Origin: Botryllus schlosseri
Lineage: Eukaryota
Assembly (NCBI GenBank): GCA_051294905.1
Contig: CM119371.1
Coordinates: 27,158,001 to 27,222,000, forward strand
Length of the DNA: 64,000 bases
Reading direction: 5' to 3'
The translations under genes and the position numbers were made by a program. Position 1 is the first letter of the stretch. Each line of letters starts with the position of its first letter. Below the pieces are notes generated by a model. That model ran no database searches. It was given only the letters and a program-made list of their open reading frames with translations, and was not told where the DNA came from. Positions 1 to 57,960 of this stretch are shown here, piece by piece.

Positions 1-815
1 GTGTATTTTTTGAAATTTTATTATTGTAAGATATTCGATTATTGGGTACCCTTTCCCAACAAAAATTAGGCATGATTTATAGAAATGGGCAGTTGGGCGT
101 CGGTTGTTACCACATCATGACGCGCCAAGACATATGAAGCTAAAGGCTATGTAACATGCGAATCCAAGAAGTGCGCCAGAACGATCAGCAGCGAGAAAAC
201 CTTGGGCGAAAAAGACTGCCCCGGTGCTGACCGAAAACTTCGATATATACAACTATATGTGTAATTGTTCATGTCCATGGGTGCCTAAATGGCTGGCGCC
301 GAATGTTCCTGTCCTGGCGATCCGAGTCCCACAACAAGACAAATGCCATATCGAGGGAACATTATTTTCCAGTTAAGAAATGCCAATTTGAAATCGTGTA
401 CGTCTTTTACTTTAGTCCCTTTTTGGCGATTTCAATATCTTTTGACATAGCAGATAGGGGGTCACGAAATAGCATCATGTAACGAAGTCATTATATCAAC
501 GGGTACGCCCGAAGATGTTTTATTATTATTTAGAGGGCCTATCTATTCCAACACACCTCACTGGATCAGCTCTACCGGTAAATCTGATTATGTGAGCAGG
601 GAGGGGATAAAAATTGATAGCAATATATATGCAATTTCCGATCATATTGGCCGATGCAATCATGAATTATAGAAATTTTTTCGCGCTTAGCGCGTTTAGG
701 GACGCTACTACTAAATGGCCACTCAATGTACAAGATAAGTACTGGAAGAATCCTAGAGCCGTAGGGGGGTCTGGGGGGCGAAGCCCCCCAGTAGTTAGTT
801 TTATCACCCTATTGG
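1..815. mobile_element. Partial hAT-type non-autonomous element, same family as 46234-47085
   Basis: Colinear similarity with 46330-46995 (e.g. gatttatagaaatgggca, ccaagaagtg.gccagaacgatc.gcagcgagaaa, aaattgatagcaatatatatgcaatttccgatc); left end lies outside the window. Confidence 0.75.
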
Positions 816-829
816 AGGGTGGTTGCGCA

Positions 830-2072
830 CTGTTGTCCGAGGGCCTGCGCAGTGAGTTGGCGTGTTTGCGCAGACTCTTGAAAAATTAGAGGGAACATTG
901 ATGGGCAGCCAGGCCCCTTTGGGGCCCTAGCTATGATTAGGAGTACTTTATGTTGTAGTTTTTGCAGTGGCTTGAGTGCAGTTTTACTGGCAGCCCCCCA
1001 ACAGAGGATACCATAGTGTAACTTCGATTGGATTAAGGATTTAAAGAGTATCAGAAGAACCCATGCTGGCATGAAGCGCCTAAGGCTGTAGAACAGGCCG
1101 CACTTCAGTGATAATTTAGTTTCTAGGGACTGAATATGACTCTTCCAGGACACGTTCGAGTCCAGAAAACCTCCGAGATATTTGGCATTATCTGTGTTGG
1201 AAACGGGCTGACCAGCGATATTACCGGTTAGCTTATTTTTTTAATTTACTGTCAGCAATTGCGATTTCGAGGCGTTTATGGAAAGGTTGTTCTGGGCCGT
1301 CCACTAATGGACTTTGGGCATTTGGTCACCAGTCAGGGCATCCAGCTCTGCCGTCGAAGATGCTGAAGAGAGGAGGTGAATATCATCAGCGAACAGTGTG
1401 GTGTTCAATGAGGAGGTTTCAAAAATGTCGTTGACATATAAGGTGAAAAGGACCGGTCCAAGTACTGAGCCTTGGGGCACATAACAGGTCACCAGGTGAG
1501 GAGAAGACAAGGTGTCTGAGATCACAACCATTTGTTGGCGTCCAGTGAGGTAACTTTTCATGAGCTCAAGTTGTGGGCCCCGAAGTCCGTAACGCGCCAA
1601 TTTCGAAATGAGAATTTTATGATCTACGCAGTCAAACGCTTTTTTTAGATCGAGAAAAATGCTACATCCCACATTTCGCTTCTCTGAGATAACATAATAC
1701 TGTTCGGCCACTGTTAGGAGGGCATATGCGGTTTGGTGTTTGTTTCGGAAGCCAAATTGTTGAGGGGAAATGACAGACATTTTGGCGAGGAATGAGGACA
1801 GGCGGGAGAGGAGCAACTTTTCGAAATCAACCCCGATGCATGGGAGAACGGATATCGGACGGTAGTTGGTGACATTAGTTCTATCCCCAGCTTTGTGTAC
1901 AGGGACTACTCTGGCTTTTTTAGATAGCTTGGGTAGACTCCATTTTCTATCATGAAGTTGAAAAAATGGGCCATATATTGACCGATATGCATGCTTATCA
2001 TTTTTAAAAACCATGATTGGATTTGGTCATAGCCGTCGGCCTCGTGCGATTTCAGTTTGTGGATGGCTACTT
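830..2072 (-). mobile_element. Non-LTR retrotransposon (CR1/L2-group LINE) ORF2, reverse transcriptase part, frameshifted
   Basis: NYRPISVLP, QFGFR, IFLDLKKAFDCVDH, VPQGSVLGPVLFTLYVND, FADD, KYLG, SWKSHI, YGILCWG. Frameshift near 1920 and a frame break near 1305. Confidence 0.93.
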
Positions 2073-3575
2073 CCCAGCAAACACAAAACCGTAAAAGGAT
2101 CATCCGGGATCATCTCGATTAGGTTCTGATTTTCTAAGTGTCGAGGGAATGTCTAAAATACGTAGTAGGATGGTCTTGTGGTTATATTCAATCAGAATAA
2201 ATTCATACTCGGTGTTGTTCCATCTCATGCATTAGGCTTCGTTATATCCGGTAGTTAACCTAATAATGCAAATTTTCTATCTCTCGAGGGTACGACTAAA
2301 ATACGTAGAAAGGATGACTTTGTCGGTACATTCAATCACGATGAATTCTATCCGGTTTTGTTCGATCTCATGCGGTAGCTTCGTTCTATCTATTAGAAAA
2401 CAATGTTCTCCCTTCGTTTTATTGCGTGAGGATGTCACCGGTGTTGTATATTCGTGTTGTTGCTCTAAGGTCGAATAGTTCTGTTTTCCTCTGATATATA
2501 TGATCTTCATTATATATATATTCGCTCTTTCGGTAATCTCGCATGTTCAACGAGTATGGCTAATAGTTTTATTCAGAGAATAACTAAATAAGTGATATGT
2601 TGTACGTTTAGGAATATGATTATCGATGCGTGACTTCTAGAATATTTCGGCGATTCAAATTTTACGTCATCGCGCCATACAAAGATTTGACGCGCAACAG
2701 GTCGCAGCCAGGCATAGTTCGCTCTTTCTGTATGGTAAATGCCGTAAATATATAGGAATTGTGACTGACTGAGGTAGCGGGTTAAAGGTATATATGCAGT
2801 AGCATATAGCTTATGGGGTATTTCGAATTGCCTGTAGTATATGACGCCTAGAGCTGTTTGACTTTCTGCAAAACAGGTGTAGACAACTATAGAAAAGTTT
2901 CAGCTTTTCCAGGTTAGAATTAGAGCTAAACCGTTTTTTCCGAATTAGATTACAATTATTTTGCTGGCATTTCGCTCTAATTTAGTGAAATTAGACCACT
3001 ATAATTCGCTTTAGGCATCTGAATTACCGGTACCTATACCTACGGTATATCATAATATTTATGCTTGAATTTTCTAGGTATATAAGTCATATAGATACAT
3101 TCCTGTAGAACACTGATTCATGATTTTATAAAAGTTGGTGCAAGAATGGACATTTTCAACTTGATGTTGATTAATGGAGCAAAATTTGATATTTGAGTGC
3201 AATTATACCTCGAATCCAGTGACAAGATTATTAATCGTTGAAACCAAACGCAGCTTGTTCATGTTGGCCCAGAGAATTTGGCTAGCCAGACCATATTTAT
3301 GGAATATGGTCACATAAGATAATATTTTGGGCTATTTTACATGAACTTGCCAACATTTGATTTGATATGTCCACTAAAACAGTTGTTATTCTGCTTTCGA
3401 ATAAGACCTAAATTGCTGGTTTCAATGGTAACTGTGTTTGTCAAAGGCTGCAAAGGTCATTTCTTTTCCATGTTAGATGTTTATTTGTTTGTTTGTGGTG
3501 TTCATGGTGGTGGTTCGACTAAACTGGTCATTTTACACCAGGCCGGTTCTTATTATTATTATTCCGTATCTGCCC

Positions 3576-4465
3576 GATTACCAGTGAACTCGGCACTTAG
3601 TGAATTCGGCCGCACAAACTCGGCACTTGGTGAATTCGGCCGTGGTAGATCTCGTAGCGGTACCGGTCACCATGATTGGTTACTGGAATGTTTGCCGGTG
3701 AACTTGGCACTTTGAGTGGTTGTCAATGTTGTACGGTGGTCAGGGCATGCGTAGATCACACAGTCACGGCGTGATTAGATCACAGATTACGTAATTGCGG
3801 GAAATAACGCGACGCTCTTCACTTGGTGAACTCGGCCCTTGGAGGAATTGACACTAGAACACCTTCGCATTAGAAATGCATTTAATATGAATGAACAGTA
3901 TCAAAAAGGGAATTTAAACGTGACGTGGCTCGTGGTAGATCTCGTAATCTTGGGATCCTTCAACCGTGTTATCGAGACACCCTAATCCCAGAGTGGAATC
4001 GTCTCTCCAAAGGCAAAAAATAATTTATTTTGACGTGATCATGCGAAACATTTGTTGATGAGGAACACTGGCTTGTCGTGATCGATAAACGAAGAAGCGC
4101 CGCTTGATGTTCCACAGTTTTGATCTCACATACAACGCCAAGATCCATCTTCTCAAAACTTACACGACACAGGCCCGTGACTCACGCCATCGATTCCAAG
4201 CAGACCGCGCGTGGTTGGTATATGAGCGCTGTGTTATTTCCCGTGGCTACGCAATCCGTGATCTAATCACGCCGTGACTGCGCGATCTACGGATGCCCTG
4301 AACTTCTTACAAGATTGACGAATTACTTGATAATACTATTATTAGTTTGATAATTCATATTAATAGCTGTAAATACACTTCATTTCAAAATTTCCCGAGG
4401 GCCGAATTCACCAAGTGGCGAGTTTGTGCGGCCGAATTCACCAAGTGCCGAGTGCATCGGCAACC
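3576..4465. mobile_element. Palindromic MITE with G-start TIRs and 8-bp TSD ATCTGCCC (MULE-like?), nested in copy 1
   Basis: ATCTGCCC at 3568-3575 and 4466-4473; arms built from gaactcggcacttggtgaattcggccgc repeats; counterpart at 12722-13581. Confidence 0.7.
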
Positions 4466-5096
4466 ATCTGCCCACTTATAGCACGGCCCACTCCTAGGCT
4501 TTTTAAGACATGGCTATGCGAATCAGATGGCGAGGAGGAGCCTAGATAAACGGCCAACACTTCGGTAGGAATTATGGAGTCGACGTGTCACGCTCGAACC
4601 CGCAATTCATTGGTGTTTAGCTATAATGGAACGTACCACTACGTTTCCTCGCCATACCTTGTAAAATGAGACCGTAGCATTTGGCATTTCGTGTGGCAAT
4701 TGACTTTTGTGTGGAAAATTGTGTTCGTTTTAGAACTTATCAGAAACGTTTATTCCGCCATAGATTGTATATGATAAAACGATATCGGAATTGATCCTAG
4801 AAGAATTCCAAAGCAACTCACCACAAAGGAGGATTTAAAGAGGTTTGATGGCAAATTGAATGAAAGCAAAAGCCTTTGCAAGAGATGTGGTATGTTGAAT
4901 CTGTTTTGTTATTTTTAAATAGGCCTACTTTGTTGTGCCGATAGCAGACGGTATATATAAACGTAAGATGTGGAAGCTATCAAGGTGTTTTTAGAAATTC
5001 AGTCAGTCAAAGTGGACGATCGTATTTCTTGGATTATATTTAGGCTTATTTTAGCATCTTTGAGATGCAACTCTAAACGTGGACGGTCATGAACAG

Positions 5097-6260
5097 TAGG
5101 GCTCTTCAAAAATGACTTTTTTTCTCAAATCGTACTGGCTACTTGATAAAATTGTTAGGTTACCTAATTTAAGCCTACAAACAAAATTTGGTTCAATTCC
5201 AGCCAGTATCCGCTTTGCTACAAGAGAAGAAAGTTCCTATTTATTATATAAAAATGAATAATAAAAAATTTGAAGATTTTCTGTTAACCCCATGAAAGTG
5301 TTAAGCTGTCTATAGAAACGATGCTCACCAAATTTGGTTCAATTCCAACCAGTGGAAGCGGAGTTATTGCTGTCGATAAATTTGGATTTTAATAAAATAG
5401 TACTTACGGTGAGCACAACTTTAATAAGTAAACAAAGAATCGGTCACCGTAAATCAGGGCCGGCCAACCCGTGGCCCGCGGGCCACATGTGGCCCGGGAG
5501 AAGGTTTTGAGTGGCCCGCGAGGCAATTTCCGAAATTTCTAATATCATCAAAAATTGATTGCAATTGAACATGCAAGGCCAACCAAAAATTTGATTGGTC
5601 TGGCCGCAACATTTGAGATGTGATGACTAAAATATCAGTTCCGGCGCATTGACAGATGCGACATTGAGTTTGCGCTCGCAGTAAGACCGTCGACTATGAA
5701 ACCTAGGCACGAAATGATTGACGCATGCTGCTTGCATCTTTCGATATCGATATGTCCATGTGCCGAATAGCCCAGTCCTCGCAAACTTAGCCCAGCGAAA
5801 TACAACAAGCCCGCAATATAGTCAAGTGACAATATTATTGACCTATGAATTTCAAGAAATTTTCGCGCCTTGCGCGGCTTGTGGCCCGCACAATAATTCG
5901 TCAATCGAATGTGGCCCGTTGGCTGAAAAGGTTGGCCAGCCCTGCCGTAAATACTATTTTATTCAAATCCAAATTTTTCGACGGCAATATCTCCGCTTCC
6001 ACTGGTTGGAATTGAACCAAATTTGGTGAGCATCGTTTCTATAGACAGCCTAACACTTTCATGGGGTGAACAGAAAATTTTCAAATTTTTATTACCTATT
6101 TATTTTTATACAATAAATAGAAACTTTCTTCTCCTGTAGCAAAGCGGTTACTGGCTGGAATTGAACCAAATTTTGTGTTTAGGCTTAAATTAGGTAACCT
6201 AACAATTTTATCAAGTAGCCAGAACGATTTGAGAAAAAAAGTCATATTTCAAGAGTCCTA
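5097..6260. mobile_element. Long-TIR palindromic MITE (tagggctcttcaaaaatgac...gtcatatttcaagagtccta); intact only in copy 1
   Basis: ~300-bp inverted arms 5097-5410 / 5945-6260; TSD ambiguous (TA or degraded 8 bp). Confidence 0.75.
5455..5944. mobile_element. hAT (Charlie-type) MITE
   Basis: CAGGGCCGGCCAACC...GGTTGGCCAGCCCTG, GGCCCGC subterminal motifs, perfect 8-bp TSD CCGTAAAT. Confidence 0.9.
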
Positions 6261-7487
6261 ATGTCCATGTCAGAGAAACGTTTTAGGGTAGGCCTACTCA
6301 TATGTCTCGCAGCGTTCTCTACATAATTGTCAATTGCGATACAAACTGTTTGCTTGTATTGGTGAAGCCATCCAACTTCGAATTGTAAAATGTTGGGAGT
6401 CTTGATATCAAATTTTTGAAAGGTGCACTTTGAGAAGATTTCGGAATCTGTCAAATTATACAAAAATTTAGCAAACTCTTTGACATATTTCATCTATTTG
6501 GGACTCGATCAACGTAAAAGAATTGGTAATCATTTTATACAATATATTGTATTTGTAGTTGAAGTATAGTAATAATTCTTATGGTTACCGCACTTGTAAC
6601 GATTCACGGCCATAACTGGAATAATTAGAATGATGTAACTTTCAAATTGTCATGCATTTTGCAACAACATTGTTCTCAATTTTCAAGGTGCTGACCATTC
6701 GAGGAAGAATCACCCACCGGGAATTCACGATCCGTAAACGCGGCCGACTGTTTCTCTCCTCAAGCGGAAGCGACAGAGAAGAGGAACGAAGAGATAAAAC
6801 GAGCAGAAATAGCAAGAGTGTGACAAGTCGCGTCCGTTCGCTTTAATGCGTATTTCCATCCGCGAAGTAGTAGGTGGGAAAACTAATGGGCGTTTGGTTA
6901 GCGCTTATATAAGGTTGACTCCAGCGCTGTATTTGCTAAATGTTGCTGTGAAATAGGGGTGGTGTCATTTGGTATCAATATTGACTATTGAAAGACCATT
7001 TGTTAGTGGTCATGGATTTGTTCGGCCAGTATGCAGTAATTTCTGATGGTCACTTCCCGGGCTTCTGTTCTCTAACCCCTCATGATTGTTATTCTGCTTC
7101 TAGTAAGACTGTCGATTCTAATGTTTTATCGTATCATTTGTCGGAGGTTTCGCTCGCTTTATTTACAACGTTTTGCTCTCTGCTAGGTCAATTACTTTCC
7201 TGGCTGTGTATCACTACAGCCTAAGAAACTGCACTAATTCTCATGTTAATGTCTTGCTGGTTATCTTGCTGTCAATTCTAATAATTTGTTAATGTCTATA
7301 CCAGTGCAGCCAGCCAGCCACTCAAATGTTTTGTTCTCTGTACACAATATTGTTAGGTCTTCAGCTTTCCAGACAGAGTATCATTCCACTTTCTAGACTT
7401 GAGTATATATCTCTCCAACTAGCTGCCAAATAACTGATTCATTTGGATTGTTGAATTGATCATTTTGGACAGAATGTGAAGAAATTT

Positions 7488-7805
7488 TAGTCAAGAATTC
7501 TTTTTGTGTTAGTGGCTGTTTTCAAAGATTGCTGAAGTAGTCATCGTTGATCTTGATAATCAAGTAGAAGTGGCGATTGAAGTCAGTTCTCTAGTCAAGA
7601 ATTCTTTTTGTGTTAGTGGCTGTTTTCAAAGATTCCTGAAGTAGTCATCGTTGATCTTGATACACAAGTAGAAGTGGCGATTGAAGTCAGTTCTCTAGTC
7701 AAGAATTCTTTTTGTGTTAGTGGCTGTTTTCAAAGAGTGCTGAAGTAGTCATCGTTGATCTTGATAATCAAGTAGAAGTGACGATTGAAGTCAGTTCTCT
7801 AGTCA
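7488..7805. repeat. 104-bp tandem repeat, 3 copies
   Basis: tcaagaattctttttgtgttagtggctg... starts at 7491, 7595 and 7699; only one unit in element copy 2 (~9795-9900). Confidence 0.92.
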
Positions 7806-8455
7806 TATAATATTAAAAAATATAATAATAAAACTTGAAAACTTGAGTGGAAATAGTTCAGAATCGAATCCATTTTAGTAAGTATGGGCGAAAAAAATGT
7901 AGGAGTCATTCGTTAGTCTCTACCTCTGCCATTTTCGCAGTACGAATGTCTTAGCTATTAATCATCATTTTCATTTTATTTCTGCAGGGTGTTGAAAAGA
8001 AAAGGCCGCATGCTGGTTATTTAACTGGCTCATCAGAAGATGAAACCTGATGATAAGGACTGTTTTCACTTTCTTTCTAAAGACATTCGTTCGTTTGTTC
8101 GTTTTATTTTTTACAACGGCATTATTGCCAATTCGTTTGAAATTAAATTATCACAAATGTGATTAATATGTAGTAAATAATGTGGTGTGTGTACGCAGCC
8201 GTGATCAGGTTAAGCCCATAGTGGTAGAAAACAGGTTATTATATCAGGATCTTCTTCTTCTAACGTAGGATCTACATTCTACTCACCATGTTTAAAGGCT
8301 GTAGCATCTGCATAATATTTACATTATTGAAGGACATGGAAAAGACGTTGAATTGAGTCGACACAAAATCCCCCTTTCTACGACCTGCCGAGATCTAATA
8401 TCTACTATATCGGCTCGGCTTTTCTACATCTTTGGTCTGTACTGTGTTTGCTGGG

Positions 8456-9132
8456 TTCTACTTCGTATTTGGTTGTAGGTTCAAGCTCAATTGACTGGGA
8501 TATCGATCTCACCTCTGACCTGGCCGACACAGGTTTTGTAATAGAAGAAGCAATATTTGGGCCTACGTTACAAAAATATTCATTGAAGTGATTCGCGATG
8601 GCCGCCGGGTCTGAAAGTTTGTTTCCGGTATCCGAATTCACAATTTCCGAAACAGACTTATGGCCTTTTTTTCGATATAGGAGAGAGTTAAGTCCTGACC
8701 ATGTTTTTCGAGTGTCCTTTATGTGTCTGTTGAAAAATCTCTCATTGTACTTTGCTTTTGCCTTGGAAATGAGATGCACGGTGCGATTCCTGAAACGTCG
8801 AAATCTTTCTCGTTCATGTTCTGGGCAGTTCTTGGTGTATAATCGGTTATGCCACCGGTTACGTTTACGGATAAGTTGAATCAGCTTTGTGGTCATCCAC
8901 GGATTTCGCTTCAATTTTCTTTGACTTCTCGAAAGGCGCTGTAGAGGTGCAAATTGTTCCAGAAGTGATTTGATAGCAGACATAAACTCTACAAATTTTT
9001 CGTCAAAGTTGTTTATCGAGATGTGGGGGATGGCTGATGTTTTAAATTGATTGAATGCGGCATCATCGAGCGCTTCTTCGTCCACTAACTCTCGTCGTCT
9101 GCAGAGGTGATATGTTTCGGGGGGTGTCCTTT
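8456..9132 (-). mobile_element. LINE ORF2 middle segment (linker between endonuclease and RT)
   Basis: LEQFAPLQRL...NPWMTTKL...RNRWH...FRRFRNRT...KTWSGLN...IANHFNEYFCNVGPNIASSI; joins in frame to both flanking LINE pieces once the two insertions are removed. Confidence 0.9.
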
Positions 9133-11370
9133 CCCAGTAAACACAGTACAGACCAAAGATGTAGAAAGCCGAGCCCGATATAGTAGATATTAGATCTCGG
9201 CAGGTCGTAGAAAGGGGGATTTTGTGTCGACTCAATTCAATGTCTTTTCCATGCCCTTCAATAATGTAAATATTATGCAGATGCTACAGCCTTTAAACAT
9301 GGTGAGTAGAATGTAGATCCTACATTAAAAGAACATCCTGATATAATAACCTGTTTTCTACCACTGGGCATAACCTGATCACGGCTGCGTACACACACAC
9401 ACACCACATTATCTACTACATATTAATCACATTTGCGGTAATTTAATTCAAAACGAATTGGCAAGTAAATAATGCCAGTGTAAAAAATGAAACGAACGAA
9501 ATTACTTGTAGGGCCAAGTAGCAATGAATGAAACTATGAGAACAGTCAGTAATCAGAAGGTTTCATCGTCTGATGATGATAATCCCTCTGGCGTTTTCTT
9601 TTCAACAACCTGTAGAAATAAAATGAAAATGACGATTATTAGCTAAGACATTCGTACTGCGAAAATGGCAGAGGTAGCGAGTAACGAATGACTCCTACAT
9701 TTTTTTTTCCATACTTACTAAAATGGATTTGATTCTGGAATATTTCCACTCAAGTTTTCAAGTTTTTATTATTATATTTTTTATTATTATATGACTAGAG
9801 AACTGACTTCAATCGCCACTTCTACTTGATAATCAAGATCAACGATGACTACTTCAGCAATCTTTGAAAACAGCCACTAACACAAAAAGAATTCTTGACT
9901 AAAATTTCTTCACATTCTGTCAAAAATGATCAATTCAACAATCCAAATGAATCAGTTATTTGGCAGCTAGTTGGAGAGATACATACTCAAGTCTAGAAAG
10001 TGGAATGATACTCTGCCTGGAAAGCTGAAGACCTAACAATATTGTGTACAGAGAACAAAACATTTGAGTGGCGGCACTGGTATAGACATTAACAAATTAT
10101 TAGAATTGACAGCAAGATAACCAGCAAGACATTAAAATGAGAATTAGTGCAGTTTCTTAGGCTGTAGTGATACTCAGCCAGTAATTGACCTAGCAGAGAG
10201 CAAAACGTTGTAAAAAAAGCGAGCGAAACCTCCAACAAATGATACGATAAAACATTAGAATCGACAGTCTTACTAGAAGCAGAATAACAATCACGAGGGG
10301 TTGGAGAACAGAAGCCCGGGAAGTGACCATCAGAAATTTATGCATACTGGCCGAACAAATCCATGACCACTAACAAATGGTCTTTTAATAGTCAATATTG
10401 ATACCAAATGACACCACCCCTATTTCAGGGCAACATTTAGCAAATACAGCGCTGGAGTCAACCTTATAAAGTGCTAACCAAGCGCCCATTAGTTTTCTCA
10501 CCTACTACTTCGCGCTTCGCGGATGGAAATACGCATTAAAGCGAATGGACGCGACTTGTCACACTCTTGCTATTTCTGCTCCCTTTTTCTCTTCCTTTCT
10601 CTTGAGGAGAGAAACAGTCGGCCGCGTTTACGGATCGTGAATTCCCGGCTTACGGGTGATTCTTCCTCCAATGGTCAGCACCTTGAAAATTGATAACAAT
10701 GTTGTTGCAAAATGCATGACAATTTGGAAGTTACATCATTCTAATTATTCCAGTTATGGCCGTGAATCGTTACAAGTGCGGTAACCATAAGAATTATTAC
10801 TATACTTCAACTACAAATACAATATATTGTATAAAATAATTACTGATTCTTTTACATTGATCGAGTCCCAAATGGATGAAATATGTCAAAGAATTTGCTA
10901 ATTTTTTTGTATAATTTGACAGATTCCGAAATCTTCTCAAAGTGCACCTTTCAAAAATTTGATGTCAAGACTACCAACATTTTACAATTCGAAGTTGGAT
11001 GGATTCGGATTTTAATAAAATAGTATTTACGGTGGGCACCACTATAATAAATAATTAAAGAATTGTGTCACGCTGTCATACTGTTTTACGCAACCGTTGT
11101 TATGCACTGCATTGTTGCTGTGTTCTGGCTCCATTGATGTAATTTCTAAATTCGACATTAATGCGTCATAATTCTCCATCTGGTTTTGAATTCAACTCTG
11201 TTTTGCTTCCTTTATGGTGCCGGTAGCTCTTTAATAGGCACGCGAAAAGTTCTTCGGGTTTTAATAACGTTTATCAAGAAGGTACTTTTGAAAGCGGTAT
11301 TAAAATTTTGTACCACCAACCAGTTATTTAATTACTATTTATCTTCAAAGTAAATGCTCATTGCATGAAG

Positions 11371-11851
11371 CAGGGTTGTAAGACTCGAGTCAGGTTTTTC
11401 TGTTGACTCGACTTGACTCAGGTCATCTTCTCAAAGTACTGAAATGACTCGACTCATTGCGCATGACTTGAGACTCAGACGGCCAAGACCGACATTTCAT
11501 TATTATTTCAAAGAATAGTACAGCAAATCGCTATTGGGATTTCGTCTATTGATACTGGTATTTGAAAATGCGACCAGAAACTGCTAAAAGTAAGGAAAAT
11601 TCGTATATTATAAATGCGACCCACTCGATATCACAAAAAATATATAAAAAGTTGGTTTAACAAGACTTAAATTGGAAACTGAGCAGCTAACACAATGACT
11701 CTGGTTCGAGTCATAATACCAAAACTCGGACTCGGCCCTCTGCTCGCTGACTTGGACTCGGACTTGACTCGAATAGAAAATGACTCGAGTCAAAACTATA
11801 AAAGTGAGATTGACTTGCGACTCGGAGCCTTGTGACTTGGTTACAACCCTG
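11371..11851. mobile_element. hAT-type MITE, CAGGGTTGTAA family with GACTCGAGTC repeats
   Basis: CAGGGTTGTAA...TTACAACCCTG, TSD GCATGAAG. Confidence 0.88.
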
Positions 11852-12529
11852 GCATGAAGCCTCAATAGTTACATGAGTGGGGTGACTAGACAAAGAACAC
11901 AGTGACATTTGCAGCATATCATGAATGTCTCTTACTATATGTGATCTTGTTCAAATGGAGGTTGATGAAAGCGTATTTCCCATTCTTTCCGACTCTGCTA
12001 TAATTTCACCAGACTGGCAACCTTCTTCATGATGCTTTTTGCTGACTGACCAATATTGTCGCCGCCAACGGTACAAGTGCAAATGTCTGATATGTCAATA
12101 TAGGAACAGAATTATTTGACTGTTCATGACCGTCCACGTTCAGAGTTGCATCTCAAAGATGCTAAAATAAGCCTAAATATAATCCAAGCAATACGATCGT
12201 CCACTTTGACTGACTGAATTTCTAAAAATAATAAACATAACACCTTGATAGCTTCCACATCTTACGTTTATATATACCGTCTGCTATCGGCAAGCATTTG
12301 AAAATAACAAAACAGATTCAACATACCACATCTCTTGCAAAGGCTTTTGCTTTCATTCAATATGTCATCAAACTTCTTTAAATCCTCCTTTGTGGTGAGT
12401 GGCTTCGTTTTATCATATACAATCTATGGCGGAATAAAAGTTTCGGATAAGTTCTTAAACGAACACAATTTTCCACACAAAAGTCAATTGCCACACGAAA
12501 TGCCAAATGCTACGGTCCCATTTTACATG

Positions 12530-12715
12530 GTATGGCGAGGTAACATAGTGGTAACCTCCAATATAGCTAAACACCAATGAATTGCGGGTTCGAGCCTGAC
12601 ACGTCGACTCCATAATTGCTACCGAAGTGTTGGCCGTTTATCTAGGCTCCTCCTCGCCATCTGATCCGCATAGCCATGTCTTAAAAAGCCTAGGAGTGGG
12701 CCGTGCTATAAGTGG
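12530..12715 (+). mobile_element. Putative tRNA-derived SINE (inverted copy at ~4470-4660)
   Basis: A-box-like TGGCGAGGTAACATAGTGG, B-box-like GGTTCGAGCC; core tttatctaggctcctcctcgccatct also seen at ~30549 and ~61057. Confidence 0.5.
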
Positions 12716-12721
12716 GCAGAT

Positions 12722-13581
12722 GGTTGCCGATGAACTCGGCACTTGGTGAATTCGGCCCTCGGGAAATTTTGTAATGAAGTGTATTAACAGCTATTAATAT
12801 GAATTATTAAACTAATAATAGTATTATCAAGTGATTCGTCAATCTTGTAAGGAGGTCAGGGCATCCGTAGATCACGCAATCACGGCGTGATTAGATCACG
12901 GATTGCGTAGCCGCGGGAAATAACGCAGCGCTCATATACCGACCACGCGCGGTCTGCTTGGAATCGATGGCGTGAGTGACGGGCCTGTGTCGTGTAAGTT
13001 TTGAGAAGATGGATCTTGGCGTTGTATGTGAGATCGAAACTGTGGAAGATCAAGCGGCGCTTCTTCGTTTATCGATCACGACAAGCCAGTGTTCCTCATC
13101 AACAAATGTTTCGCATGATCACGTCAAAATAAATTATTTGTTGCCTTTGGAGAGACGATTCCACTCTGGGGTTAGGGTGTCTCGATAACAGGGTTGAAGG
13201 ATCCCAAGATTTCGAGATCTACCGCGAGCCACGACACGTTTAAATTTCCTTTTTGATACTGCTCATTCATATTAAATGCATTTCTAATGCGAAGGTGTTC
13301 TAGTGCCAATTCCTCAAAGGGCCGAGTTCACCAAGTGAAGAGCGTCGCGTTATTTCCCGCGATTACGCAATCTGTGATCTAATCACGCCGTGACTGTGTG
13401 ATCTACGCATGCCCTGACCCCCGTACAACATTGACAACCACTCAAAGTGCCAAGTTCACCGGAAAACATTCCAGTAACCAATCATGGTGACCGGTACCGC
13501 TACGAGATCTACCACGGCCGAATTCACCAAGTGCCGAGTTTGTGCGGCCGAATTCACTAAGTGTCGAGTTCACTGGTAATC
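12722..13581. mobile_element. Palindromic MITE, TSD GGGCAGAT (counterpart of 3576-4465)
   Basis: GGGCAGAT|GGTTGCCGATG...CACTGGTAATC|GGGCAGAT. Confidence 0.7.
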
Positions 13582-15102
13582 GGGCAGATACGGAAGGATA
13601 ATAATAAGAACCGGCCTGGTGTAAAATGACCAGTGTAGTCGAACCACCACCATGAACACCACAAACAAACAAACAAACATCTAACATGGAAAATAAATTA
13701 ACTTTACAGCCTTTGACAAACACAGTTACCATTGAAATCAGCAATTTAGGTCTTATTCGAAAGCAGAATAACAGCTGTTTTAGCGGACATATCAAATCAA
13801 ATGTTGGAAAGTTCATGTAAATTAGCCCAAAATATTATCTTACTGTGACCATATTCTATCAATATGGTCTGGCTAGCCAAATTCTCTGGGCCAACATAAA
13901 CAAGCTGCGTTTGGTTTAAATGATTAATAATCTTGTCACTGGATTCGAGGTATAATTGCACTCAAATATCAAATTTTGCTCCATTAATCAACATCAAGTT
14001 GAAAATGTCCATTCTTGCACCAACTTTTATAAAATCACGAATCAGTGTTCTACAGGTATGTATCTATATGACTTATATACCTAGAAAATTCAAGCATAAA
14101 TATTATGATATACCGTAGGTATAGGTACCGGTAATTCAGATGTTAGAAGCGACTTGGACAACTAGATAATTATAGTGGTATAATTTCACTAAATTAGAGC
14201 GAAATGCCAGCAATATAATTGTAATCTAATTCGGAAAAAACGGTTTAGCTCTAATTCTATAGCCTGGAAAAGCTGAAACTTTTCTATAGTTGTCTGCACC
14301 TGTTTGCAGAAAGTCAAACAGCTCTAGGTGTCATATACTACAGGCAATTCGAAATACCCCATAAGCTATATGCTACTGCGTATATACCTTTAACCCGCTA
14401 CCTCAGTCAGTCACAATTCCTATATATTTACGGCATTTACCATACAGAAAGAGCGAACTATGCCTGGCTGCGACATGTTGCGCGTCAAATCTTTGTCCGG
14501 CGCGATGACGTAAAATTTGAATCGCCGAAAATTCTAGAAGTCACGCATCGATAATCATATTCCTAAACGTACAACATCTCACTTATTTAGTTATTCTCTG
14601 AATAAAACTATTAGCCATACTCGTTGAACATGCGAGATTACCGAAAGAGCGAATATATATATAATGAAGATCATATATATCAGAAGAAAACAAAACTGTT
14701 CGACCTTAGAGCAACAACACGAATATACAACACCGGTGACATCCTCACGCAATAAAACGAAGGGAGAACATTGTTTTCTAATGGATAGAACGAAGCTACC
14801 GCATGAGATCGAACAACACCGGATAGGAATTCATCGTGATTGAATGTACCGACAAAGTCATCCTTTCTACGTATTTTAGTCATACCAGCGAGAGATAGAA
14901 AATTTGCATTATTAGGTTAACTACCGGATATAACGAAGCCTAATGCATGAGATGGAACAACACCGAGTATGAATTTATTCTGATTGAATATAACCACAAG
15001 ACCATCCTACTACGTATTTTAGACATTCCCTCGAGACTTAGAAAATCAGAACCTAATCGAGATGATCCCGGATGATCCTTTTACGGTTTTGTGTTTGCTG
15101 GG

Positions 15103-15870
15103 TTGTTGTTCTTGTGATAGAAAACCAATATGGTTGTAGTCACTGATTTTTGCCGAAATGACAAATGGAATGATTTCTATGTCGCGCGGGTTGGTATATA
15201 TGTGGTCGATCAAAGTGCTTGACTTATCGGTTATGCGCGTAGGCTCGGTGATCATTTGGTAAATACCGGCGGATTTGATGGCGTTGGAGTATGCGTTGCC
15301 TTTGTGTTTTAAAAGGTTTATGTTAATATCTCCCGCAATGAAACACATCTTATTGTCGCTATTGACTTTGTCCAGTGAGTGCTCCAACGCTTTTGCGAAT
15401 TGGTTCATGTTTTTCGTGGGATGACGGTACAATACGGCCACAAGAAAAGATTTGTGAATTCCAATTGGGTGATCAACTTCCAGCCATAACTCTTCGCAAT
15501 CTTTGACATTCAGATCGTAGTCCGTGCAGATTTCGTATGGAATGTTTTCTTCAATGTAAAGACCAACACCTCCGTAAGGTTTCTTTGACTTCGGTGCCGG
15601 AGTATACTCGAAGTTGTATCCCGATATATCAACATTTTGCGTGGGTTTGGTTGAAAAGTTTATTTCTGAAATCGCTACGAGGGTAGGTAACTTCAGATCA
15701 ACGATAAGGTCTTTTAACTCATCATGGTGGGAATTAGATTGCAATCCTCCGATATTTGTATGAATCAAACTAATTTGTTTGCCCTTCGGGGCTTGCAGAA
15801 TTGATGCCGTCTCGTTGATCGATATTGTGTTACTCTTTCTGATCAGTGGGAAACTATTTTCATTCGTCAT
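15103..15870 (-). mobile_element. LINE ORF2 APE-type endonuclease domain
   Basis: HTNIGGL, VAISE, GGVGLYI, LYRHP, IAGDININL, EPTRI, LIDHIYTN; final SDH motif reads SDY. Confidence 0.92.
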
Positions 15871-16139
15871 GATTCCGAGTTGACCCAAATTTCCATGTTG
15901 TTTTGTGGTTACTAAGTTATCTTGAATCAAGTAAATCGTTGGTTGTGAAAGAAAAATTTTCGAATCCCTCCATTGCATAAATTAGTATTTTTTATGAATT
16001 TCCAGTTTGAATCGGATTAGGATTGGACATGGACTTGAATATGAAAAAGTTATGGATTAGGATTTGGATTTGGATTTGAAGGTTCGGAATTGGATTGGAT
16101 TAGGACATAAAAATTTCAAATCCGCTTATCTCTGCCAAC

Positions 16140-16441
16140 TACGTACGTATAGTTTAGCATTTCTACGTATATGTGAGCGATAAAGCGCCATCTTGCGTTT
16201 ATATTTAACTCTATATTCGTTCATTGGTCCAGAATCAATGACCACTAATACCTCATACGTCGAAAAGTCAACTTGACTTGAATTGTGACTTGACTCGTGA
16301 CTTGACTTGACTTGACTCTACTTGACTCGACTTGACTCGAGTCACTTCCAAAAATCGGGTGACTTGACTTGACTCGAGTCAAAATGTGCAATGACTCGAA
16401 ATGACTCGTGACTCAAAGGTAGTGACTTGATCCCAACACTA
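16140..16441 (-). mobile_element. Partial CAGTGTTGGGA-family MITE
   Basis: Reverse complement of 30817-31220 (gacttgatcccaacact end, GACTT/GACTC repeats). Confidence 0.7.
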
Positions 16442-16864
16442 TTGATTGGTTGAATAAGCGTCATTCGCTGACTGTGCCCATGCAAAAATCTCGAAAATGC
16501 TGCAGAGTCATGTATACAGCGTATACGTCTCTCTCTTCACAGCAGACCATTTTCGCTGAGACTCAGTTAACCTCTTGCTGAAAAAAGCCAGAGGTACATA
16601 TCTGCCATTCTGGTACTCATTGATGACTGCGCTCAAAGCAACTTGACTCGCATCTGTCACAAGCTATACAGTGTACAGGCTCTTGGAATGTCGGAAAAAC
16701 CAATCTCGCTGCATCTATCAAAGCTGCTTTGATCTGCTCAAATGCACTCTGTGTCGCACTGGATCATTGGACCTTACTTCGAGCCCTGGTTCCCTTCAAC
16801 AAGTCATACAATGGCTACATATAAAAATTGTTACCTGTTTCCAATCCCTAGCATAAGTTAGTAC

Positions 16865-19800
16865 CAGTGGCGGCTCGTCCTATAGGGCAACTGGGGCATT
16901 GCCCCACCTAAAATTCTGTTCAATAACAATTTAACCATTTATAGACGCACAGCAATCAATATATACCGAGATCACAGCGAAACCCGCGTTCTTCTTGTGC
17001 TTTCGCTTGCAAACGCCCATACATAGCGAAGTCTCTGCGAAAATCGAATTCTCTTCTGTGTTTTCGCTTTGTGAATGCCTAGCCGGGGCTTGCCCCGGTA
17101 GCGCTCATAACAAGCTTTCACTATCTATTCTCTCAAAGCCGCGCACAATAAAGAAACGGTGATTTACTCTCTCCTATTCGTAAAATGGCCGAGCAACCGG
17201 GGCAAATATGCCTACTCGCCCTTAAGGTGTGATGTAACAATCGTATCTATATCTGAACTCGGTTACCGTAATATGCGTTGAGTCGACCTTTGCTGGAATA
17301 GGTCGATTTTGACGGTGTTTCGCACCATGATAATTCTTGAAACTTGGTATGATATGTCGTGAAGGTAGTATTTAACACTGCTCCAAGTTTCAGGCTTGCT
17401 ACTTAAAGATAATGGTAGTAATTCCGTTTCCGAAGTTCAGTGTGTGCTGATCTATCATGTACAATGTACATAGTACAGCAAACAGATTTTACTCAAAAGC
17501 CGGTATTGGTCTCCATTGATTTTGACGATGTTCTATACCGAGATCGGTCATGACATTTGGCACGGTAAGTGTTAGTATCGACCGCTGTAACAAGTTTTAA
17601 GTTTGTCACTGAACTATGTGGGTGGTAATTTCGTTTCCAAAGTAGAGTAAGAGCTGACTCTTCATTTATCGCCAACAAATTTACGCAAAAGCCGTTATTG
17701 GTCTCTATTGATTTTAACGATGTTCCATACCTAGATCTGTCATGAGCTTTCACACGGTATGTCTTGATTTTAGTATCGAACACGGTGCCAAGTCTTAAAG
17801 TTGACACTCAATGATTGAGGCAGTTATTTCGTTTTCGAGGTCGAGTATGGTAGAGATGCGCGCTGATCTGATACTTAGCCTACCTACGTCATTGTGGATC
17901 TCACGCAAAAGCCGGTGTCGGTCTGTGCTAATCTATATAGTCTGCGTTCCATAACGAGATCGGTGATGATATTTCCAATGGTATATCTCGATGATCGGAT
18001 GAAACAGCTAACCAAGATTCTCGGTTTGCATTCAAATATTCACATAATTTTATGTTCGCCAATGTCCATTTCACTGTGAAATTGTGGCCTTCAAACCATT
18101 TGCTTACAATCCCCTGTCAATTGCGATAGCTATTTCATTTTCGATGTCGGCTAACAGCTGATCATTCGATCAGCCTATTCCTCGATCTATTTTACTCAAA
18201 GTCAGGTGTTCGTCTGTTTGTATTGATATTGACAGTGTACCATACCGGAATGGGTTATGAGATTGCGTATGCTACTTCTCGATGATTTCTTGTAACAGTA
18301 TACTAAGTTACGGCTTTTATTCATGTATTTATTGATTAATATATTTTCCAACGGCGATTTCGCAGCAGACTTATAGACAGTAAGCCGTATGTGTTGTGTC
18401 ACAGTCTCCAGTTTCAAGGCCAAAATGTCCTACGTTGTTCCGAGACCGAAGTTCCGAGGCTGCTGTCCTTAGTTCTTCAAAGACCATTCAAATTGATGTT
18501 CTGGATTCAATATAACAGGCCCAATCTATGAGATAACAATTGCGTATGTGTCCGAACTCGTTGACCTTTCCAGTTAGGCTTACGCAATCTCTCGAGTTCT
18601 AGTCATTGGAATTACTCAGGTCAAGTCAAGTGCGAACATGAATCGTATTGAATCTTTATTCCGTACGTAGTTTACGCAGTTGCCTTTAGAGCAAAAATGA
18701 GAGGTCTAGAAGTTGTCCAGTCTATTGATCCAATCGTACGCCGGGTGCCTCCGCTTTGGTTGCCTATTATCACCTGGTCGTAACCAGAGATGGCCACAGT
18801 CCGGTTCAGGAGCAGGAGCAGGATTTCAATGTTTTTTTACCTGGCCGGACTCGATCCGGATTTCGAATTTGGGGTGACGGTCGGATTTTAGGGTCTATCG
18901 ATTTGCGTAATCTATAACTCTACCATGAAATCAAAACGCATGCTACTAAGGATGACCTGATACTTGATTCGTGGCATAGGGACGATTCTTAGTTCACGTA
19001 CATTTTGTAAAATAATCCTTTGATTAAAAATAAATGAATAAAACATTTGTTACCACACTTCAAGTCACGGCTCACCGGCAAACCTCTCGCGGCACCTACG
19101 GTAAAATCACTGTTGTCGGGAAATTCATGTGACCATCATAAAGTTACTTTTTTACGTTGGAAAACGCCATTGTGACGTCATGTTGATAAAAGTCGCTCGC
19201 AGCCCTTGCCCCACCACCCGATATTGTCACGAGCCGCCACTGCTGAGATGATGATATCATTCTCAGATTCCATTCAAATATTTACTTTGATATTATATCC
19301 TCCAATGTCAATTTCACCGTGAAATTGTGGCCGTCAAGCCATTTGCTTACAACCCTCTCAAGCGCGATAGCTATTTAGTTTTCGATGGCGGCTAACAGCT
19401 GATCACTTGATCAGCCTATTCCTCAGTAAATTTTACGCAAAATTCGGTGTTGGTCTGTTCGCATTAATTTTGACAGTGTGCCATACCGAAAAGGGCCATG
19501 AGGACACTTCTCGATGATGTCATGTAACAGTGTACTAAGTTTAAGGCTTTCATCCACGTATTTATTCGGTAATATATATTCCAAAGGCGATTTCGCAGCA
19601 GACCTATAGACAGTAATAAAGCCGTATGTGTCGTGTTACAGTCTCCAGTTTCAAGGCCAAAATCTTCTATGCTGTACCGAGACCGAATTTCCGAGGCTGC
19701 TATTCTTATAGTTCTTCAGAATGATGTTTTGGATTCAATATGACAGGCCCAATCTATGAGATAACAATTGCGTGTGTGCGTATGAGTCCGGACTCGTTGA

Positions 19801-20194
19801 CCTTTCCAGTTAGGCTCGAGTTATCGTTATGAGATAACAATTGCGTATCTATCCGAACTCGTTGACCTTTCCAATTAGGCTTACGCTATCTCTCGAGTTA
19901 TAGTCATTTCCATTTCTGCAGATAATTAGTCAGGCCTAGTGCGAACATGAACCGTGTTGAATCTTTTTTCCGTACGCCGTTTACGCAGTTACCATACTTC
20001 AAGTCACAGCTCACCGGCGGACCTCTCGAGTCTCGTGGCACATACGTTAAAATCACTGTTGCCGGGAAATTCATGTTACCGTACCATCATTAAGTTACTT
20101 GTTTACGTTGGAAAACGCGATTGTGACGTCATCTTGATAAAAAGTCGCTTGCAGCCCTTGCCCCACCACCCGATATTGTCACGAGCCGCCACTG
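16865..20194 (+). mobile_element. Composite hAT non-autonomous element (CAGTGGCGGCTCG TIR) with duplicated right half
   Basis: TSD GTTAGTAC at both outer ends; extra internal right end GAGCCGCCACTG at ~19242; degenerate ~200-bp internal tandem units. Confidence 0.88.
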
Positions 20195-21648
20195 GTTAGT
20201 ACCCTAGAATCGAACAATATATTTAGTTTTTTTTACACAAAGATCTTTGGCTTAAAAGAGGAAATTTATACTGAAAGATATATAACGCGGAGCGAATGTT
20301 TGTTGATGTTGTACTTGTGTAATCTGACTCCAGAAGGTTACTTGTGGCATTCGTTGCGTATGTCTTCCCTTCGACGGACCGGCGTACCACGAAGCCTGTC
20401 TAGTACACTTATTCGAAGATCACACGGACAGCTGTTTTTGTTCTGTCTCCACGACTTGTAATTTTATTGAATCAGCGTACGACGACGTGATAGCATTTTG
20501 ATCATGAAATTGAAGGGAATGTGTATACGTCGTATTACGCGCATTATATATTAAAGCGACGAGAGATTACATGCACGAGATATCGTAACATTTATTTCTT
20601 CCTACCTCGATTTCACACGACACATACACGACTCATGAATGTCTTATCGGGTTTTCACTACATGGAATTAAGTATTGTTTCGTGATAATCCTCCTCGATC
20701 AAATATAAAAATGGCGTTAACAATATATTCAGTTATACCTACATGTAGCGTATTTCGCTCTTGATATTGTGTGATTGCGAGCCAACTTTTGTAACAAAGC
20801 AGGTAAAATTTCCAAGCAAATATGTTATGATGACGTTAATATTGTAATATATACGAAAAAAGTTCACAGTGCAGAACCAACGAAATTTCGTTTGTGAACG
20901 TGAACCTCTCAATTTCCGAGGTTCACACATAGAACGCGTGCGTGAACCTCGCGTTCAGACCATCACTATCTACTACCCCTAAATATAGTGATTTTGCTGT
21001 ATTTTGATTTAAAAGAGTCATTTGTGTGTCAAAATAACAAATAGATCGGATTTCTAAACTTTAGAGTACGAGTGAACCAAGTTTCTATCTCGCCATTTCA
21101 GCGAAAATTTGAGATTTTGGTCAAAATAGCCCCATGGGTTATCTCCAAAACAAGTGCCAATTTGAAAAAAACTAAGGTCATATTCGGAATCAGTGCCCTT
21201 CAGAACCCCCAAAACCATTCTTACTTTGTGTGCCTAAAAATATGTGTTGACCAGTGTTATTTTTGTAATACCATAATATGAACTTCTTAGGAAGTGGCAT
21301 TCTAGAAAATTTGTTACAATTTAGTGGCTATATCGTCGTTCTAAAGCACTTCGATTTAAATCCTTGCTTCTTTGATTGAAAAGTATGCATGAAGTATGAC
21401 ATGATCTTATTAGCAAATATAATATTTCTCTCTATTCTATTGTCTATCTGCGCACTCTGCACATATGCTTGACGGAAAGACCATAAAAGCATCAGAGAAC
21501 ACCTACACGCCTTCACCAGCCACTCCTAATTCAGGGACATCTTTTTATCGGTGCAGTGTCCTGGTAACAAGTCACAATCTAGCATCGATGTATGATTAGT
21601 ACGATGCTCCTGTGACGTTTAAAATCGCATTATAATTAGAATTATTAC

Positions 21649-27939: not shown

Positions 27940-28252
27940 TCAGAATCTTCTTCGGAACTTCATCTCGGAGAACTGAATGTAATGATAAGTTGAAGGAAAA
28001 TTCTGGTCCTCCCACACAAAGCTATCCACGCCCCTCGTGCGAAATCCATTGAGATGGCTGTCGGCACAGGCGTGAAACCACCAAGCTCCTTTCCAGTAAG
28101 AAGCGCAATTCACACTTGAAGCTGCGTCGTGATCTGCGTCTTTCGTTGTGAATGGTTGATTGTTATGCCCCCCGAGTGAATCCGTGGCATTTCCGGAGTA
28201 TCCGGACACGTTCAATATGTAGTTGGTGGAGCCAGGTCCGACTCGAAAATTG
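27940..28252 (-). CDS. FReP paralog A exon 5 (C-terminal part of fibrinogen domain)
   Basis: tag|C AAT TTT CGA...; [20 protein letters not shown]...GAWWFHAC...SEMKFRRRF*. Confidence 0.93.
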
Positions 28253-57647: not shown

Positions 57648-57960
57648 TCATAATCTTCTTCGGAACTTCATCTCGGAGTAATCAAGGTTTTGCCGAGTTG
57701 GAGGAAAATTCAGGTTCGTCCATTCAATTTCAGTCCTGTCCTTCGTGAGACGTGTGTTGAGATTGGCATGGAAGCAGTCAGTATACCACCAAGCTCCGTG
57801 GCTGAGAGAAGCGCAATTCCCACTTGGATATGCGTCATGATCTGCGTCTTTCGTTGTGAATGGTTGGTTATTGTGAAACGCGAGTGAATCTGTGGCGTTT
57901 CCGGAGTATCCGGACACGTCCAATATGTAGTTGGTAGAGCCAGGTCCAATTCGAAAATTA
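57648..57960 (-). CDS. FReP paralog B exon 5
   Basis: [20 protein letters not shown]...[14 protein letters not shown]...SEMKFRRRL*. Confidence 0.93.

Follow-up and report, generated by a model that had tools for sequence, protein, structure and literature searches.

Two oppositely oriented non-autonomous TRC/EnSpm-type elements inserted in one LINE copy

The interrupted LINE and the two elements

The window analysed here, the whole stretch of 64,000 nucleotides from Botryllus schlosseri, contains two transposable elements that lie in opposite orientation within a LINE. Element A occupies positions 2073-8455 (6383 bp) on the plus strand, which is the strand of its relic helper gene, and is of the non-autonomous TRC/EnSpm type; element B occupies 9133-15102 (5970 bp) on the minus strand and belongs to A's family and to another sub-lineage of it. 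The 13-bp TIR CCCAG(C/T)AAACACA occurs four times in the window, where chance would give 0.15 occurrences, and all four are located at the ends of A (2073-2085 and 8443-8455) and B (9133-9145 and 15090-15102). TT adjoins each of the four ends, and the target-site duplications (TSDs) are found at 2071-2072 and 8456-8457 for A and at 9131-9132 and 15103-15104 for B. The original prediction that each element has its own TIRs and its own TT duplication was thereby borne out.

ORF2 of the LINE is read from the minus strand in three pieces. The 5' part (15103-15981, 5' limit approximate) encodes an apurinic-type endonuclease (PF03372, E 5.7e-6), the 677-bp linker piece between the elements (8456-9132, including both inner TT copies) is in frame with both flanks, and the end of the linker with the reverse transcriptase domain (PF00078, RVT_1, E 5e-28, 1307-2026) lies at 897-2072, a piece with a frameshift near 1906, two in-frame stops and an approximate 3' limit. 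The order of APE-type endonuclease followed by reverse transcriptase is present, and this LINE, which is itself multi-copy, may be akin to the CR1/L2 group. When A and B were excised with one TT each, a stop-free LINE frame of 572 codons was obtained, reading LSQEQQ|RTPPET and KYEVE|VAIHKL across the junctions. Among the 25 trim combinations at the A and B junctions, trims other than 2 left 307-315 codons at B and 518-532 codons at A, the contrast at A being weak because the frame stops about 55 codons further on at an unrelated frameshift. The predicted continuity of ORF2 across both junctions, with its endonuclease and reverse transcriptase, was confirmed.

The empty LINE site at B was found in a contig of public run X11, which joins 9123 to 15103. 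This contig has three T's at the site, equal to one TT copy, with the adjacent G run one G shorter, and it bears out the 2-bp duplication for B. The TIR pairs and TSDs, separate for each element, and the LINE frame restored on removal support the view that the 13-kb inverted structure consists of two separate insertions, in opposite orientation, within one LINE, as had been proposed.

Family assignment and the relic helper gene

The TRC group of animal CACTA/EnSpm elements is characterized, as far as the published accounts go, by a short TIR starting with CCC and a 2-bp TSD (PMC1636069, PMC4298943). A and B have CCC-starting 13-bp TIRs at all four ends and a 2-bp TT TSD, and their ends, duplication and size fit this group, in agreement with the earlier assignment to an EnSpm/CMC-type element in an animal genome. 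The assignment rests on ends and TSD, because Transposase_21 was found neither in 94 frames (all B frames of at least 36 aa, five A frames and the LINE pieces) nor in 104 frames of at least 72 aa within 16000-64000; a missing transposase is expected for non-autonomous copies. CACTA/EnSpm elements have a short subterminal repeat motif common to both ends. In A and B the best shared 8-mer count was 7, versus 6-10 in 20 shuffles, and only a 143-bp doublet was present at the 5' end (1.8 units at 2129-2390 in A, plus strand; counterpart in B at 14783-15057).

Known relatives share several of these features. Spongebob_HMa / EnSpm-4N1_HM of Hydra is described as an element of about 5.8 kb with a TIR starting CCCAGC, a 2-bp TSD and no recoverable transposase, and the likeness extends to a copy number in the hundreds (441 in Hydra) (PMC4298943). 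Compared by ends, TSD and size, the two differ in that the TIRs diverge past base 6 (CCCAGCCAACATTGAC versus CCCAGCAAACACA) and, going by that description, in that the family of A and B retains a relic spliced helper gene (PMC4298943). SmTRC1 and the Aedes TRC element are similar in their CCC core, 2-bp TSD (Aedes TIR CCCAGTCAAC), spliced transcripts without a transposase domain and copies inside other repeats, as outlined in PMC1636069, whereas they encode Transposase_21, which was found in none of the frames examined here.

Both A and B lack a transposase and carry the relic of a spliced gene that is broken in the two copies; its role as a helper is putative. Exon a (A 4790-4889, plus strand, start approximate, GT donor after 4889; B ~12405-12327, minus strand) was recovered by tblastn with the protein P0002 (E 7.6e-8 on A) and has an identical +1 frameshift in A and B, which could be a family-wide or a shared derived change. 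Exon b (11936-12086, minus strand, one frameshift, 67% identity to P0002, E 1.7e-9) is present in B only and missing from A. Exon c lies at 6688-6873 in A (plus strand) and 10681-10502 in B (minus strand), with a donor at 6873 seen in RNA and a predicted acceptor at 6688. The last exon, d, spans 7988-8150 in A (plus strand, end approximate, ATTAAA at 8142) and starts at 9609 in B (minus strand). The GT-AG junction 6873|7988 was carried by 1326 reads of RNA run X22, from a loose-end consensus; the RNA evidence came from raw-read runs with the same species label, and transcription of some member of the family continues. With exons matching P0002 and this junction in RNA, the relic has the character of a spliced, TnpA-like second gene. 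An ATG with a GTGAGT, close to the 3' end of A and on the other strand, was considered as an alternative gene start and rejected, since the RNA runs in the reverse direction.

The relic gene is possibly DUF4806/BEN-like, with a putative motif likeness to such proteins. An Atlas feature comparison placed DUF4806 at rank 14 (score 0.89, on 16% of members), which is a lead only, and no Pfam match to PF16064 (DUF4806) was obtained with the exon pieces or with P0002, which reads through an intron. The structure model of P0002 was unusable (pLDDT 38). Exon a alone as a query gave one candidate and no confirmed match, exon c gave 45 candidates with none confirmed, and exon b in frame 1 had 0 matches among 1.84 billion representatives, the Atlas giving nothing usable. 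Likewise, P0002 gave 71 pattern-matching stretches in viral contigs and 455 in metagenome contigs with 0 confirmed in either, and a single match in the PDB at chance level (E 1).

Divergence of the arms and origin of the pair

Each element contains further repeats. A nested inverted-repeat element at 3576-4465, with an 8-bp duplication (ATCTGCCC), is common to A and B (12722-13581) and therefore predates both insertions. A MITE-like element with 325-bp arms (92%) occurs only in A (5088-6269, ends approximate), where it takes the place of B's exon b, and it contains in turn a CAGGG...CCCTG MITE at 5455-5944 with an 8-bp duplication (CCGTAAAT), which we take to be hAT-like. A piece of B at 11003-11071 is 85% like the centre of the long-armed MITE; it has no arms and, relative to the element, runs in the reverse sense. 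A second hAT-like MITE lies in B's intron b-c (11371-11851, 8-bp duplication GCATGAAG); its left junction is found in a high-depth contig, so that it probably came from the subfamily by inheritance. In the last intron of A, a 104-bp unit is repeated 3.1 times (7488-7805, plus strand) and is present once only in B. Self-matches cover 58% of the window, Rfam gave 0 matches within 1-16500, and the 25-base 5' end of the element had 0 matches in metagenome contigs.

The two copies had been described as near-perfect reverse complements. The opposite orientation stands, and about 4.8 kb can be aligned at 95.8% identity (202 mismatches in 4790 aligned columns), but the middles (A 5098-6363 and B 11007-12118, 1.1-1.3 kb) are non-homologous save for a 69-bp piece in opposite sense. 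Near-perfection does not hold even for the alignable segments, which are 96.7% (A 2073-5097), 96.5% (A 6364-7487) and 91.0% (A 7696-8455) identical with 27 gap events in the alignment; in a patch of exon d (A 7990-8125), 34 of 127 columns differ from B (27%). The longest perfect run between the arms is 146 bp; runs of that length arose in 36% of 2000 random scatters, and there is no indication that the arms have undergone gene conversion with each other.

Allele sharing was assessed at sites from 40 listed of 472 variant rows; 20 of the 40 fall within the shared arms. At all 19 listed sites where the base of B is not that of the family majority, A agrees with the majority, and it shares the B-specific alleles at 0/19, which gives the shared fraction a 95% upper bound of 15%. 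Homopolymer-type indels of intermediate frequency at 9706, 9763 and 14302 were little weighted, being prone to recurrence. A 17-bp gap near 10601 was rejected as a family polymorphism, since 8320 of a depth of 8330 was of A type, and it is probably private to B. Contig depth, which is not equivalent to copy number, was very high over B's full length in two DNA runs. B's middle was represented by single contigs of X11 with depths of 5230 and 6494, which differ from B at 3 of 290 bases, and the B-type 3' patch had a depth of 8358 in X1 and 4756 in X11; the A-type exon d was the one present in the 1326 RNA reads. With its middle and its 27%-diverged patch in high-depth contigs, B seems to belong to a multi-copy subfamily. 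It is 3.6% different from A, compared with about 1% between B and the high-depth subfamily contigs, and the two seem to be related as cousins and not as a parent and its copy. The local hopping originally put forward is not supported, given the unshared alleles and the occurrence of B's middle and 3' patch in high-depth contigs of other copies.

Considering these results, we favour, with a probability of about 0.75, separate cut-and-paste insertions of different sub-lineages of a high-copy, non-autonomous TRC/EnSpm family into one LINE copy. A fairly young, multi-copy LINE would have been struck twice by this family, each time with a transposase acting in trans that bound the CCCAG ends and left the TT duplications seen at both elements. 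The family would descend by deletion from an element with two genes, the transposase having been lost and the spliced helper gene, now visibly decaying, retained, and A and B would derive from different sub-lineages elsewhere in the genome, as allele sharing suggests. Their proximity might be due to chance, to clustering of targets or to survival within a region dense in repeats, and the present pair would then be an incidental, convergent and imperfect inverted repeat. Under uniform insertion, 0.02-0.5 such pairs are expected per family at 100-500 copies in 350 Mb (both values assumed), and only 0.005-0.02 at 50-100 copies in 350 Mb (assumed).

A local hop soon after landing, before private mutations arose and with later remodelling by deletion, MITE insertion and conversion by distant copies, appears unlikely. 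The 677-bp spacing and the exon-a frameshift in both copies speak for it, as do local transposition described for Ac/Ds, P, Tc1 and Sleeping Beauty and the closely spaced Pack-CACTA1a insertions noted in PMC6379663, and few shared private alleles would be expected if it took place during the family's burst. It has to accommodate, however, the lack of any shared allele among those listed and the closeness of B to the subfamily contigs rather than to A, and it requires both conversion of the exon-d patch to the haplotype of other copies and replacement of the middle. It is considerably less probable still that the pair was assembled afterwards, by ectopic recombination of two LINE copies with one insertion each or by a mis-join through the repeated spacer. 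The LINE is indeed multi-copy, none of the contigs listed spans the whole structure, and in X11 no depth was recorded for B-specific alleles at 12 of the 15 sites checked, although contigs drop rare variants; against this, the arms differ throughout and are not one sequence assembled twice, window-type alleles of both the LINE and the element were found at low non-zero depth at 12 of 15 sites in run X1, and the frame is intact at both junctions. A single fold-back or composite element, inserted as a 13-kb unit together with LINE DNA, would account for the identical outer ends with TT beside them, and yet we give it almost no credence: the flanking LINE, whose frame is continuous, lacks exactly the in-frame piece that forms the spacer, each arm has both of its own ends and its own TSD, and the middles are unrelated. 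The original prediction, which had excluded a fold-back and a duplication of host DNA, was supported in this respect.

Nested insertions of a high-copy non-autonomous family are expected in a repeat-dense region, and the pair, which is real, is mostly ordinary. It cautions that inverted neighbouring copies are not necessarily the product of a local hop, a possibility that allele sharing relative to the family consensus can test without the genome. The helper gene is the part of most further interest.

Geometry of the inverted pair

Mobilization of the pair as a composite had also been suggested. Its outer ends are both 5' ends and identical, the TT on either outer side belongs to the TSD of the adjoining element within a continuous LINE, and the LINE frame runs outside and inside the pair, all of which argues against this suggestion. 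Ac/Ds macrotransposons, in the account of PMC3239180, use one 5' end and one 3' end, both external. A and B resemble these and the Pack-CACTA hybrid elements as two neighbours enclosing other DNA, whereas such units, as described, need direct orientation; the external ends of A and B are both 5', and the unit is unmoved (PMC3239180, PMC6379663). The pairing of A 5' with B 3' and of A 3' with B 5' corresponds to double-Ds as defined in PMC3239180. The inverse Ds pair of rice OsRLG5-161 and maize double-Ds likewise consist of two non-autonomous copies that face opposite ways at a distance of about 1 kb, with their own TSD per copy and two directly oriented 5'/3' end pairs (PMC3239180). The rice pair belongs to hAT and consists of identical young copies exposed to active transposase under tissue culture, and spacer inversion was reported there in 33 of 300 plants (PMC3239180). 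In contrast, A and B are CACTA elements with interrupted arms that are 3.6% diverged. As to the predicted spacer inversion, this haplotype shows no net flip, since the reading frame passes unbroken from either flank into the spacer, and the arms show no homogenised tract. Following the preferred reading of two separate insertions, and by analogy with Ac/Ds, a still active transposase would make the pair a double-Ds-like substrate for breakage or flanking rearrangement and not a macrotransposon.

The geometry would allow the predicted hairpin or small RNA, for which the reads mapped here gave no locus-specific evidence. Both relic genes point to the spacer, so that read-through of about 1 kb beyond A's last exon would give a fold-back RNA. 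A joint reading, in which TRC elements with CCCAG ends have as their helper a DNA-binding protein of DUF4806/BEN type, equivalent in animals to maize TnpA, and the read-through fold-back RNA acts as a silencing trigger, is speculative and on balance doubtful. We found no paper linking DUF4806 or BEN to EnSpm in a literature search whose coverage stopped short of Repbase and most subscription journals. If the helper were of DUF4806/BEN type, the DUF4806 family of unknown function would be tied to EnSpm transposons, and an intact partner with a BEN-like fold beside a TRC transposase would give DUF4806 a function class and represent a second type of animal EnSpm helper. The fold-back RNA, if made, would contain more than 2000 perfect 21-mers and could be a natural silencing trigger for the still-transcribed family.

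Structure of the nested pair

Self-comparison of the window gave three inverted blocks between element A (2073-8455, plus) and element B (9133-15102, minus). Aligned one at a time, the blocks showed identities of 96.7%, 96.5% and 91.0% and had 27 gap events; over 4790 aligned columns, 202 mismatches were counted. No alignment was obtained between A 5098-6363 and B 11007-12118. The 13-kb inverted repeat of the original prediction is real, yet its arms are imperfect and interrupted by these middles. Both elements have 13-bp terminal inverted repeats (TIRs), CCCAG(C/T)AAACACA, the four being the only matches within the window (0.15 expected), and a TT duplication stands at every end, in agreement with what had been claimed for each element. 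Excision of A and B with one TT each left 572 codons without a stop across both predicted junctions, which confirmed the restored LINE frame, with endonuclease upstream and reverse transcriptase beyond an unrelated frameshift.

The B insertion site without the element, and with a single TT, was found in one contig of DNA run X11, and this contig may represent another copy of the LINE family instead of the empty allele of this locus. B-specific alleles had zero depth in X11 at most checked sites; thus the B insertion may be polymorphic between individuals, which is a hint only because contigs drop rare variants. B also holds at 11003-11071 just the centre of a long-armed MITE that is whole in A (compared with 5380-5447). 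This piece has the same position within the element but is inverted and only 85% like that of A; it may stem from an old common insertion, later flipped and shortened, or from a second one.

A relic gene and the family of the elements

A relic gene in both elements, with exons a (4790-4889), c (6688-6873) and d (7988-8150) in A and exon b (12086-11936) in B, had been overlooked. When exon b was searched as protein with its frameshift bridged by X, a single protein, P0002 (one of six candidates), matched with 67% identity (E 1.7e-9); its sequence reads through an intron and matches exon a of both A and B. Exon b is missing from A, its position being taken by a long-armed MITE into which a hAT-like MITE is nested. 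A frameshift in exon a is common to A and B, so neither can make the putative helper protein. In RNA run X22, 1326 of 22.2 million records (~60 per million) break off at 10515 and continue with letters matching the A exon from 7988, giving a GT-AG intron (6874-7987) on the element sense strand; this junction was taken from the loose-end table, and the 15 joints listed, of 207, included none from RNA. Since the junction consensus has a single difference from A, and the B allele is absent from 326 of 331 reads at 10598, the spliced transcript comes from some family member, not B, and A is not established as its source. The wording of the relic exons is reminiscent of DUF4806. Pfam gave no support for this assignment, the Atlas offered it as a lead only (score 0.89, DUF4806 on 16% of members), and the structure model of P0002 was unusable. 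DUF4806 is tied to the BEN fold in a protocol paper (PMC10789644). The helper-gene relic is the sole lead of wider interest.

Judged from their ends and target duplications, A and B fit the animal CACTA/EnSpm elements of the TRC group, which is defined by TIRs starting with CCC and 2-bp duplications (PMC1636069). Its Hydra member Spongebob_HMa (5836 bp, 441 copies) starts with CCCAGC (PMC4298943). No transposase domain was detected among 94 frames taken from B, from parts of A and from the LINE, or among 104 frames from window positions 16000-64000, so A and B are non-autonomous; a transposase would then act in trans, and the family may descend from a two-gene element. Every bin of B lay under very high depth contigs in two DNA runs, and single X11 contigs over B reached 5000-17000, with low-depth contigs listed at 44-221, which suggests a family on the order of a hundred copies, though depth is not copy number. 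The nested arrangement is real but ordinary, and the family is a new one of a known kind.

Origin and stability of the pair

The local hop of the original prediction disagrees with allele sharing. Forty variant rows were displayed, with 432 more beyond, and 20 of the 40 lay in the shared arms; the others (LINE, flank and B's own middle) were excluded from the allele test. At 19 of the 20 displayed shared-arm rows B was off the family majority and A had the majority base (19/19), the twentieth lying inside a diverged patch; at most 15% of derived alleles would be shared (95% upper bound). The B middle recurred, with 3 of 290 bases different, in X11 contigs that were 5230 and 6494 deep, one of them continuing for 22 bases within the nested hAT-like MITE, so that B is ~1% from a multi-copy subfamily versus 3.6% from A. 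In the patch at A 7990-8125, 34 of 127 columns differ from B (binomial p 3e-20 against the rest); because the B type reached a depth of 8358 in one DNA run and 4756 in the other, and RNA shows the A type, both haplotypes are probably older than these insertions. We infer that A and B are of separate subfamily origin. A hop early in the family burst, followed by heavy remodelling, is a less probable alternative, and the common exon a frameshift is explained by neither separate origin nor a local hop. Pairs this close are expected at 0.02-0.5 per family (100-500 copies, uniform insertion, assumed 350 Mb), and 58% of the window is self-repeating; A and B may be neighbours by chance, by clustering of targets or because they survived in a region dense in repeats.

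As the relic genes converge, each element has its 3' end at the spacer and its 5' end on the outside. In contrast, the Ac/Ds macrotransposon combines a 5' end on one outer side with a 3' end on the other (PMC3239180), which speaks against the proposed mobilisation as a composite. The same paper describes inverse Ds pairs with directly oriented 5'/3' ends as a substrate for sister-chromatid transposition, and recombination that flipped the spacer between identical Ds copies, separated by 1.1 kb, in 33 of 300 rice plants (PMC3239180); by analogy, such behaviour might extend to the CACTA-type pair. The 677-bp LINE spacer (8456-9132) is in frame with its flanks, indicating no net flip, and the longest perfect run between A and B (146 bp) is in line with random scatter, indicating arms without homogenisation. 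Contrary to the anticipated spacer inversion and instability, the pair appears stable so far. A predicted fold-back RNA, with 2092 perfect 21-mers, would require transcription to continue beyond exon d, whose start is 468 bp from the end of A, and across the 677 bp of LINE; RNA depth was at most 3.4 in the two bins wholly inside the spacer, where reads cannot be placed at this locus.

Other features of the window

Fibrinogen C-terminal domain exons (27943-28353, 33839-34174, 57651-58091 and 61942-62166, all minus) fall into two related blocks, at 27.4-35.5 kb and at 57.1-63.4 kb, that are 73-85% alike, putatively a tandem pair of genes or pseudogenes. A second reverse-transcriptase fragment (47210-47668, minus) matched RVT_1 (E 1e-6), and a hAT transposase C-terminal dimerisation fragment (56021-56458, plus, E 5.8e-8) is flanked by 42-bp tandem arrays (55629-55786 and 56611-56807). 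Self-comparison also gave a second family with internal repeats, whose inverted copies (16865-20197 versus 51942-53847) are 76-96% alike and lie 32 kb apart. Related GACTC/GAGTCA-rich MITE copies occur at 11371-11851, 16271-16440, 21648-22062 and 30814-33400; this family had the top DNA depth of the stretch covered by reads, with RNA on both strands.
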